Shown here piece by piece: positions 150 through 3,641 of a DNA stretch of 64,000 bases. The stretch comes from Escherichia coli. Its GTDB lineage: Bacteria > Pseudomonadota > Gammaproteobacteria > Enterobacterales > Enterobacteriaceae. A model generated the notes under the pieces. That model was not told the origin of the DNA. It did no database searches and saw only the letters and a list, made by a program, of their open reading frames with translations. The translations under genes were made by a program, and so were the position numbers. How positions within the stretch are numbered: position 1 is the stretch's first letter; every line of letters starts with the position of its first letter. Location of the stretch: assembly GCF_003334355.1 (NCBI RefSeq), contig NZ_QOWP01000018.1. One strand, given 5' to 3'.

Positions 150-896
150 TTATTTATTCCCCATAATGATATTAAGCGTTTTCTGATCGGGCAACCCCAC
201 GGCCTGTTGTAGCGTATTTTCCTTACTCATGTAATAGATAGCCGGCGTGACATTTGCCCCCAGATCGTCCATCAGTTTCTCATTGTCACTTAACACTTTC
301 ATTTGCTCTGTACTTACGTTTGCAGGCACGTTTAGCTTAAGCTTGCCACCAGAGGCTTCATATTGTTGCCAGGTTTTTGCGGGATCTTTGGAGGCAAGAA
401 TTGCCGCTGCTGTCGCCGGGCTTTCTGGCTTGATAACCCCAACCAACAATGTTCTTAATTGCACTTTGCCAGAATCTACCCACGGGCGCGCCTGCTGCCA
501 GAACTGTTTACAATATGGGCAGAACGGATCGGCGAAGACGTAGACAATGACCGGCGCATCTTTTTTACCGTCGAGGAGCCAGTGGGATTGTTCCATCCGT
601 TGCCACATTTCGCGTCCGGCTGGTGCGTAAATTTCTTTTTCGATAAGTGTGTTACTCAGGTTTTCACCTTTCTCGTTGTACATGTAACCAGAGATAGCGT
701 GCTTACCATCTGGAGTCAGGTAGATGGTGACGCCCATATCCTGATACTTTCCGAGATAACCTTTCATTCCTCCGGGGGCATCGAATGTTTTGATGATTGT
801 AATGCCCTGTTTTTCAATCGCTTTTACTGGAGCAGGAAGTTCCTCTGCGAAGGCGATTGCAGGAAGCAGAGCCAGTAAAAGTATCTTTTTTAACAT
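150..896 (-). CDS. dsbG: Periplasmic thiol:disulfide interchange protein DsbG
   Basis: ORF 150..956 trimmed to internal Met ([17 protein letters not shown] signal peptide); 248 aa with CPYC thioredoxin-fold motif; start codon verified as cat on plus strand at 894-896. Confidence 0.9.
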
Positions 897-1139
897 TAAT
901 TTGTCCTTTTCAGTCAGTGCAAAAGTCGAGTAAAAGGCATAACCTATCACTGTCATAGGTAAGAGCTTAGATCAGGTGATTGCCCTTTGTTTATGAGGGT
1001 GTTGTAATCCATGTCGTTGTTGCATTTGTAAGGGCAACACCTCAGCCTGCAGGCAGGCACTGAAGATACCAAAGGGTAGTTCAGATTACACGGTCACCTG
1101 GAAAGGGGGCCATTTTACTTTTTATCGCCGCTGGCGGTG

Positions 1140-1267: not shown

Positions 1268-1831
1268 ATGTCCTTGATTAACACCAAAATTAAACCTTTT
1301 AAAAACCAGGCATTCAAAAACGGCGAATTCATCGAAATCACCGAAAAAGATACCGAAGGCCGCTGGAGCGTCTTCTTCTTCTACCCGGCTGACTTTACTT
1401 TCGTATGCCCGACCGAACTGGGTGACGTTGCTGACCACTACGAAGAACTGCAGAAACTGGGCGTAGACGTATACGCAGTATCTACCGATACTCACTTCAC
1501 CCACAAAGCATGGCACAGCAGCTCTGAAACCATCGCTAAAATCAAATATGCGATGATCGGCGACCCGACTGGCGCCCTGACCCGTAACTTCGACAACATG
1601 CGTGAAGATGAAGGTCTGGCTGACCGTGCGACCTTCGTTGTTGACCCGCAGGGTATCATCCAGGCAATCGAAGTTACCGCTGAAGGCATTGGCCGTGACG
1701 CGTCTGACCTGCTGCGTAAAATCAAAGCAGCACAGTACGTAGCTTCTCACCCAGGTGAAGTTTGCCCGGCTAAATGGAAAGAAGGTGAAGCAACTCTGGC
1801 TCCGTCTCTGGACCTGGTTGGTAAAATCTAA
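1268..1831 (+). CDS. ahpC: Alkyl hydroperoxide reductase, peroxiredoxin subunit C
   Basis: 187-aa ORF recognised as AhpC (FVCPTEL peroxidatic Cys motif, C-terminal resolving Cys); GGAGGA Shine-Dalgarno upstream. Confidence 0.97.
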
Positions 1832-1969
1832 ATTTCCTTCGTCTTTCACGCCATAGCGGCGTTGGCGTCGCCCGCTCACCCCGGTCACTTACTTGTGTAA
1901 GCTCCCGGGGATTCACAGGCTAGCCGCCTTGCTCTGACGCGAAATACTTCGGAAATTCACCTAATTCTT

Positions 1970-1996
1970 CGGGTGCTGCGGCACCCGATTTTCTTC
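1970..1996 (+). terminator. Candidate partial intrinsic terminator/attenuator between ahpC and ahpF
   Basis: 7-bp GC-rich stem cgggtgc/gcacccg with 4-nt loop, followed by attttcttcc. Confidence 0.35.
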
Positions 1997-2075
1997 CCCG
2001 CACCATGATGCAAGCTGCATCCAGGTAGCCGCAGAGGCCGCTTGCATGATGATGTTTAAAGCCCAGGAGATAAAC

Positions 2076-3641
2076 ATGCTCGACACAAATATGAAAACTC
2101 AACTCAAGGCTTACCTTGAGAAATTGACCAAGCCTGTTGAGTTAATTGCCACGCTGGATGACAGCGCTAAATCGGCAGAAATCAAGGAACTGTTGGCTGA
2201 AATCGCAGAACTGTCAGACAAAGTCACCTTTAAAGAAGATAACAGCTTGCCGGTGCGTAAGCCGTCTTTCCTGATCACCAACCCAGGTTCCAACCAGGGG
2301 CCACGTTTTGCAGGCTCCCCGCTGGGCCACGAGTTCACCTCGCTGGTACTGGCGTTGCTGTGGACCGGTGGTCATCCGTCGAAAGAAGCGCAGTCTCTGC
2401 TGGAGCAGATTCGCCATATTGACGGTGATTTTGAATTCGAAACCTATTACTCGCTCTCTTGCCACAACTGCCCGGACGTGGTGCAGGCGCTGAACCTGAT
2501 GAGCGTACTGAACCCGCGCATCAAGCACACTGCAATTGACGGCGGCACCTTCCAGAACGAAATCACCGATCGCAACGTGATGGGCGTTCCGGCAGTGTTC
2601 GTAAACGGGAAAGAGTTTGGTCAGGGCCGCATGACGTTGACTGAAATCGTTGCCAAAATTGATACTGGCGCGGAAAAACGTGCGGCAGAAGAGCTGAACA
2701 AGCGTGATGCTTATGACGTATTAATCGTCGGTTCCGGCCCGGCGGGTGCAGCGGCAGCAATTTACTCCGCACGTAAAGGCATCCGTACCGGTCTGATGGG
2801 CGAACGTTTTGGTGGTCAGATCCTCGATACCGTTGATATCGAAAACTACATTTCTGTACCGAAGACTGAAGGGCAGAAGCTGGCAGGCGCACTGAAAGTT
2901 CACGTTGATGAATACGACGTTGATGTGATCGACAGCCAGAGCGCCAGCAAACTGATCCCAGCAGCAGTTGAAGGTGGTCTGCATCAGATTGAAACAGCTT
3001 CTGGCGCGGTACTGAAAGCACGCAGCATTATCGTGGCGACCGGTGCAAAATGGCGCAACATGAACGTTCCGGGCGAAGATCAGTATCGCACCAAAGGCGT
3101 GACCTACTGCCCGCACTGCGACGGCCCGCTGTTTAAAGGCAAACGCGTAGCGGTTATCGGCGGCGGTAACTCCGGCGTGGAAGCGGCAATCGACCTGGCG
3201 GGTATCGTTGAGCACGTAACTCTGCTGGAATTTGCGCCAGAAATGAAAGCCGACCAGGTGCTGCAGGACAAACTGCGCAGCCTGAAAAACGTCGACATTA
3301 TTCTGAATGCGCAAACCACGGAAGTGAAAGGCGACGGCAGCAAAGTCGTTGGTCTGGAATATCGAGATCGTGTCAGCGGCGATATTCACAACATCGAACT
3401 GGCCGGTATTTTCGTCCAGATTGGTCTGCTGCCGAACACCAACTGGCTGGAAGGCGCAGTCGAACGTAACCGCATGGGTGAGATTATCATTGATGCGAAA
3501 TGCGAAACCAACGTCAAAGGCGTATTCGCAGCGGGTGACTGTACGACGGTTCCGTACAAGCAGATCATCATCGCCACTGGCGAAGGTGCCAAAGCCTCTC
3601 TGAGTGCTTTTGACTACCTGATTCGCACCAAAACTGCATAA
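2076..3641 (+). CDS. ahpF: Alkyl hydroperoxide reductase, flavoprotein subunit F
   Basis: ORF 2046..3641 trimmed to Met11 ([10 protein letters not shown]), giving 521 aa; CHNC and CPHC redox motifs and GxGxxG FAD/NAD motifs; AGGAGA Shine-Dalgarno at about 2064. Confidence 0.95.

Follow-up and report, generated by a model that had tools for sequence, protein, structure and literature searches.

Intra-operon partial intrinsic terminators, of which T1 of rpsU-dnaG-rpoD and the rplL-rpoB attenuator are examples, carry a GC-rich hairpin and a U-tract between co-transcribed genes, form in vivo 3' ends at the U-tract, and are associated with an upstream product that outnumbers the downstream one. 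Stabilisers of the REP/BIME type, such as that of malE-malF, are repeated extragenic palindromes located directly after a highly expressed upstream cistron. Among RNase III sites, the classic one in the rpsO-pnp leader has the opposite outcome to stabilisation of an upstream message. The Salmonella ahp locus was presumably among the earliest IRU/ERIC examples. The ahpC promoter is controlled by OxyR. The ERIC (IRU) elements are 127 bp long, possess terminal inverted repeats and form long stem-loops in transcripts (PMC2229807); Sharples & Lloyd (1990), Hulton et al. (1991) and Wilson & Sharp (2006) are cited for them in that review. The intercistronic and 3' RNase III sites of Gordon, Cameron and Pfleger (2017, PMC5371410), including those of pflB-pflA and yajQ, stabilise the upstream message and resemble the ahpC-ahpF spacer in an imperfect stem of about 22 pairs, rnc-dependent coverage and in vitro cleavage, the cut separating two cistrons and leaving a hairpin at the new 3' end.

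The window analyzed here is a stretch of 64,000 nt from Escherichia coli (contig NZ_QOWP01000018.1), which is identical to E. coli K-12 MG1655 (NC_000913.3) over the compared stretch 638,800-639,900, so that a window position plus 637,677 gives the NC_000913.3 coordinate. Its features around the ahp operon are collected in Table 1. As stated in the first-pass annotation of this DNA, a spacer of 244 nt occupies 1832-2075, between the TAA of ahpC, which ends at 1831, and the ATG of ahpF at 2076. The predicted fold of the whole spacer (-87 kcal/mol, z = -2.73) agrees with its earlier description as highly structured, but the structure consists of three modules in a row rather than a single one, and a long, imperfect inverted repeat at 1832-1957, which makes up over half of the spacer, had been overlooked. 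The spacer is probably a composite of three independent elements carried on the ahpCF transcript: an ERIC (module A), a partial terminator (module B) and an RNase III stem (module C). Of the evidence, the 3' ends, the rnc-dependent gap in coverage, the in vitro cleavage and the change in ahpC half-life were taken from published experiments, and the identity and polymorphism of the ERIC and the conservation and covariation of modules B and C come from the present analysis.

Table 1. Features of the ahpC-ahpF region in window coordinates.
Feature	Position	Strand	Evidence or remark
dsbG	150-956	-	in window
ahpC CDS, 187 aa, stop TAA 1829-1831	1268..1831	+	ORF list; identical to MG1655 b0605, 638945-639508
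Module A, ERIC/IRU repeat, about 127 bp	1832..1957	. (published consensus orientation = minus strand)	inverted repeats, ERIC primers, fold, dispersal
Module B, terminator-type hairpin and U-tract	1969..1995	+	terminator scan, fold, Term-seq 3' ends, conservation
Module C, RNase III processing stem	2000..2055	+	inverted repeat, fold, RNAalifold, published RNase III site 639695
ahpF Shine-Dalgarno AGGAG 2065-2069 and ATG 2076-2078	2065..2078	+	sequence
ahpF CDS, 521 aa	2076..3641	+	MG1655 b0606 start 639753 = window 2076
uspG		-	in window

In the divergent dsbG-ahpC region on the other side of ahpC, an Rfam match to STnc70 was observed at 1030-1123 on the plus strand (42.7 bits against a gathering score of 40). 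A Term-seq 3' end at 638,796, which is window position 1119 and lies 149 nt upstream of the ahpC ATG, has an intrinsic-terminator score of 5.17 and was recorded under each of the three growth conditions. The match and this 3' end together suggest a short terminated transcript beside the ahpC promoter region.

The hairpin followed by a U-rich tract, previously placed at 1970-1996, was recovered as a stem at 1969-1988 and the tract TTTTCTT at 1989-1995. In the terminator scan, hairpin B has an 8-bp stem (1969-1976 paired with 1981-1988) with 6 G-C pairs and a 4-nt loop (1977-1980), and the U-tract, TTTTCTTC, follows the stem directly with 6 U in 8 nt. None of 200 shuffles folded as well as the native hairpin (-16.6 kcal/mol, z = -4.76). 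Term-seq of MG1655 placed a 3' end at 639,668 in LB at OD 0.4 (17,950 reads) and in M63 (8,697 reads), and at 639,670 in LB at OD 2.0 (7,690 reads), all figures being average reads (Adams et al. 2021, PMC7815308, Supplementary file 1). These coordinates correspond to window positions 1991 and 1993, inside the U-tract, and the flanking sequence printed with them is exactly that of hairpin B; 3' ends of the kind that the first-pass annotation proposed to seek by Term-seq are thus present in the spacer. They were classed as "orphan" in PMC7815308 because of their distance of 160 nt from the end of ahpC; the 3' end at 639,668 belongs to ahpC. For nearby coordinates, the supplementary files of Adams et al. 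contain entries only in the list of Term-seq 3' ends and none in the BCM/Rho file; the TERMITe supplements contain no entry for ahpC.

The stem of hairpin B is maintained in 17 Enterobacteriaceae with compensatory changes, namely A-U to U-A in three taxa and C-G to U-A in four, the third pair varying among U-G, U-A and C-G, and it was recovered by RNAalifold without guidance. Hairpin and T-run are kept in every Enterobacterales spacer examined, including those of Pantoea, Erwinia, Providencia and Brenneria. In these four genera and Arsenophonus, the spacer is only 68-79 nt long and consists essentially of the hairpin, the T-run and then the ribosome-binding site, with 20-28 nt from hairpin to ahpF ATG and no stem C. 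Over a wider range, a terminator-like hairpin was detected in 37 of 69 proteobacterial ahpC-ahpF spacers, compared with 1.4% of shuffles. Hairpin B is therefore an ancient, conserved, 3'-end-forming element. As a candidate member of the intra-operon partial terminators, it looks constitutive rather than regulated, since no alternative antiterminator structure was found. Regulated attenuation by a riboswitch or a leader peptide was considered and rejected: the Rfam search of 1958-2075, which covers modules B and C, returned at E <= 10 only chance-level matches with no credible family, the upstream ATGs give no ORF in a conserved frame, and no exclusive antiterminator fold was found, with hairpin B intact in both the MFE and the centroid folds.

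The long imperfect palindrome downstream of hairpin B has 12-nt arms, catgatgcaagc (2004-2015) and gcttgcatgatg (2040-2051), exactly where the first-pass annotation had located them; 11 of the 12 positions are complementary, with a G-G mismatch at 2007/2048. Pairing extends beyond these arms to 21 nt on each side (2001-2021 with 2034-2054, 81%), and the full stem C is predicted to contain 22 pairs, in keeping with the roughly two helical turns of duplex of an RNase III substrate, at -23 kcal/mol (z = -2.47), a value that 3 of 200 shuffles equalled. RNAalifold predicted the same stem without guidance. The earlier figure of about 13 nt to the ahpF Shine-Dalgarno holds when counted from the end of the 12-nt 3' arm at 2051; counted from 2055, where the full predicted stem ends, the distance is 9 nt.

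Stem C is the very ahpC-ahpF site of Gordon et al. (2017), to which its phylogenetic range, its placement between an older terminator and the ribosome-binding site, and the asymmetry of its arms are added here. The published intergenic RNase III site lies at 639,695 in NC_000913.3 coordinates, where 4 reads were counted in each wild-type replicate and 3,598 in the rnc mutant; both in vitro cleavage by purified RNase III and 5' RACE confirmed it (PMC5371410). In the same study, loss of rnc shortened the half-life of ahpC from about 14 min to about 6 min and left that of ahpF unchanged (PMC5371410). Coordinate 639,695 corresponds to window position 2018, the center of the rnc-dependent coverage gap in the upper part of stem C, and this position fits excision of the apical part of the stem by a staggered double cut. 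The earlier proposal that the palindrome could act as a processing site is thereby supported, because it contains a site whose use is rnc-dependent in vivo and which is cut in vitro (PMC5371410). Gordon et al. imposed a minimum spacing of 400 bp between sites, so further RNase III cuts within the ERIC are possible.

Modules B and C together occur as a single copy with at least 95% identity in 5,422 E. coli genomes, and they do not vary among the four representatives that were aligned to cover the three E. coli spacer alleles. Three of 5,426 E. coli genomes gave no match to the B and C query, and in NZ_CP045741.1 (E. coli DH5alpha) only nucleotides 1-36 of the query matched, under a feature annotated as ahpF; the locus may have been rearranged or misassembled. 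Across 17 taxa, stem C is paired in 94.9-95.7% of cells, compared with 28-48% when the partners were slid. The lower part of the stem shows next to no variation, which makes covariation uninformative there; the few substitutions seen in the 5' arm lack compensation. Stem C is found only in the group of Escherichia, Salmonella, Citrobacter, Klebsiella, Raoultella, Enterobacter and Leclercia, where hairpin B lies at a constant 86-93 nt from the ahpF ATG rather than the 20-28 nt seen elsewhere. These distances suggest that stem C came later, as an insertion of about 65 nt that separated the terminator from the ribosome-binding site. Sequestration of the ahpF Shine-Dalgarno by the pyrimidine-rich linker after hairpin B until stem C is cut was considered and dropped as inconsistent between taxa; the mean unpaired probability of the Shine-Dalgarno was 0.44 in the uncleaved and 0.60 in the cleaved form, and in K-12 it was 0.57 versus 0.58.

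A likely course of events on the ahpCF transcript can be proposed. The ERIC, inserted directly after the ahpC stop codon, would form a long imperfect stem-loop in the ahpC 3' UTR. Hairpin B would act as a partial intrinsic terminator at which most transcripts from the ahpC promoter end, a minority reaching ahpF, and termination there would yield more ahpC than ahpF message. In the read-through transcripts, RNase III would cut stem C. The upstream product of this cut may be trimmed back to hairpin B and join the stable ahpC mRNA pool, and the downstream product would be the ahpF mRNA, whose 5' leader would be the highly conserved 3' arm of stem C; this identity of the mature leader is likewise a prediction. 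Termination at hairpin B may set the AhpC:AhpF ratio. A ratio of about 6:1 was measured by APEX in Shigella dysenteriae (PMC2716310), and termination at hairpin B combined with cleavage of stem C would give more AhpC than AhpF, in line with this value. Of the earlier suggestion that attenuation in the spacer sets the ratio, the first half agrees with the in vivo 3' ends at hairpin B (PMC7815308), and the second is kept here as a step that may follow.

Hairpin B could instead be no terminator, an explanation that is unlikely. The operon would then be transcribed throughout, RNase III would cut in stem C, 3' exonucleases would trim the upstream product to hairpin B, which would serve purely as a stabiliser, and the ratio would arise from differential mRNA stability and translation. 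Gordon et al. proposed that hairpins 3' of ahpC block exonucleases after cleavage (PMC5371410), and the drop in ahpC half-life without RNase III points in the same direction. The mapped 3' ends lie only 3-5 nt past stem B and so could have been trimmed rather than terminated, and the abundant rnc-mutant reads across 639,695 indicate that read-through is not rare. On the other hand, the T-run directly follows the stem in all Enterobacterales spacers, including those without stem C, which favors termination at hairpin B; a block to exonucleases needs no U-tract, and hairpin B scores as a canonical terminator hairpin. These features suggest that hairpin B terminates transcription rather than only blocking exonucleases, and partial termination followed by RNase III cleavage is retained as the preferred reading.

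Module A, the first of the three elements, differs in nothing material from described ERICs and is an ordinary copy of this repeat. It is an imperfect palindrome of about 127 bp, ERIC1R and ERIC2 match its conserved central inverted repeat, it is extragenic but transcribed, and it has several dispersed copies per genome. Short forms with an internal deletion occur, and strains differ in whether the element is present. The outer imperfect inverted arms (1831-1857 and 1931-1957, 27 nt, 74% complementary) enclose a central inverted repeat at 1873-1916, and the element folds at -46.1 kcal/mol (z = -3.34 against shuffles). ERIC1R and ERIC2 are the standard ERIC-PCR primers, the names and sequences of which were confirmed from the literature; ERIC2 matches at 21 of 22 positions on the minus strand (1873-1894) and ERIC1R at 20 of 22 on the plus strand (1895-1916), with no such match expected by chance in either case. 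A BoxC repeat was dropped as the identity of the module because the core matches both primers. The 128-nt segment was found at 41,233 places in 5,426 complete E. coli genomes, with a median of 8 and a maximum of 15 per genome, and a copy that spans 80% or more of the query is present in 4,214 of these genomes. At the ahp locus, the element lies between the ahpC stop codon and the 3' ends at 1991/1993, that is, within the transcribed region. Rfam at E <= 10 returned two weak minus-strand matches inside the ERIC, V_AS5 (22.8 bits against a gathering score of 96) and CssrA (19.4 bits against 93), which probably reflect ERIC-like sequence within those families.

The ERIC at this site is polymorphic. 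Among 5,423 complete E. coli genomes, the 244-nt spacer with the full-length ERIC is carried by about 1,763 (about 33%), a 170-nt spacer with the outer ERIC arms only by about 2,542 (about 47%), and a 128-nt spacer with no ERIC by about 1,112 (about 20%). The ERIC starts at the TAA stop codon, and the 128-nt "empty" allele also differs from the filled allele in its flanks, so that the insertion event is old or, instead, the empty allele arose by deletion. A full ERIC is present at the same position in Salmonella, Citrobacter werkmanii, Raoultella and Superficieibacter. A second ERIC subtype was observed at the site in Citrobacter, Raoultella and Enterobacter sp. Bisph1. REP/BIME-like palindromes, with motifs including TAGGCCGGGTAA and GCCGGATG, replace the ERIC at the same spot in Klebsiella pneumoniae, Enterobacter hormaechei, strain RIT691 and Leclercia. 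Their location, exactly where E. coli and Salmonella carry the ERIC, marks the site immediately 3' of ahpC as a hot spot for repeats. The E. coli K-12 site resembles the REP/BIME stabilisers in its position and differs from them in carrying an ERIC rather than a REP, with a stabilizing role of the repeat that is only putative.

A functional role of the ERIC as a regulator, with its stem-loop controlling ahpC decay through orientation-dependent access of RNase E or RNase III as reported for Yersinia, is highly unlikely. ERICs co-transcribed with flanking genes do change the stability of upstream transcripts in Yersinia (review PMC2229807), and the copy at this site is more similar between genera than flanking third codon positions are, with 92% identity between K-12 and Salmonella (59-78% at flanking third codon positions) and 94.5% between K-12 and Superficieibacter; third codon positions of the flanking ahpC and ahpF are 57-78% identical over the comparisons among K-12, Salmonella and Superficieibacter. 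The high identity between K-12 and Salmonella is the known strong conservation of ERICs. Against a regulatory role stand the large fractions of E. coli genomes that keep only the arms or have no ERIC, the unrelated REP-like palindromes of Klebsiella and Enterobacter at the same spot, and the position of both the mapped 3' ends and the RNase III site outside the ERIC. With about two thirds of E. coli genomes either lacking it or retaining a truncated form, the ERIC is a dispensable passenger in the ahpC 3' UTR. The length of 244 nt is accordingly a strain-specific accident of ERIC insertion, and the conserved functional core of the spacer amounts to about 118-128 nt.

That the palindrome of module C acts as DNA, as an operator or as an internal ahpF promoter from which ahpF is transcribed separately, is scarcely credible. 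In its favor, the two arms of stem C show strong sequence conservation, ATGCAAG(T/C)TGCAT forms a small palindrome of its own, and the 3' arm contains TTGCAT again. Against it, a scan of 1832-2075 found no sigma-70-like internal promoter on either strand, the rnc-dependent read gap shows that transcription continues through stem C, the RNA is an in vitro substrate of RNase III (PMC5371410), and no Rho-dependent or other 3' end is listed at stem C in the data of Adams et al.

What remains of interest is the unusual conservation of the 3' arm of stem C. This arm, GCTTGCATGATGATGTTT (window 2040-2057, alignment columns 95-110), is 97% identical across 17 genera-level taxa, compared with 88% for the 5' arm, and its identity equals that of first and second codon positions, third codon positions being at 68-72%. 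The asymmetry of the arms goes beyond what pairing alone would require. As the predicted 5' end of the mature ahpF mRNA after the RNase III cut, the 3' arm could be a translation enhancer or a standby site; alternatively, a protein or small RNA could bind it and tune AhpF independently of AhpC. As a separate possibility, ahpC mRNA stability could differ among E. coli lineages according to which of the three natural ERIC alleles they carry. The pair of proposals, a sequence-specific task of the 3' arm beyond pairing and an effect of the ERIC alleles on ahpC mRNA stability, is quite speculative and would more probably fail than hold. The small ORFs that could begin at the ATGs of the 3' arm (2046/2049/2052) or at the ATG of the 5' arm have no frame or stop that is conserved across taxa. 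The three ATGs of the 3' arm are in frame with ahpF and extend it to a 531-aa ORF. The 90% AhpF cluster is likewise represented by a protein of 531 aa, so the ahpF start is probably placed 10 codons too early in some assemblies.

The idea of attenuation or processing in this spacer is right yet not new, given that the ERIC repeats, the Term-seq 3' ends and the RNase III site were all already public. The contribution lies in joining these known pieces into an ancient terminator hairpin, what looks like a later insertion of an RNase III stem of about 65 nt, and a strain-specific ERIC. In E. coli, endogenous hydrogen peroxide is scavenged mainly by AhpCF, the two subunits of which are required in unequal amounts. 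At the strength proposed here, the spacer illustrates how unequal subunit output may be obtained from one operon, by a terminator hairpin and then an RNase III stem.
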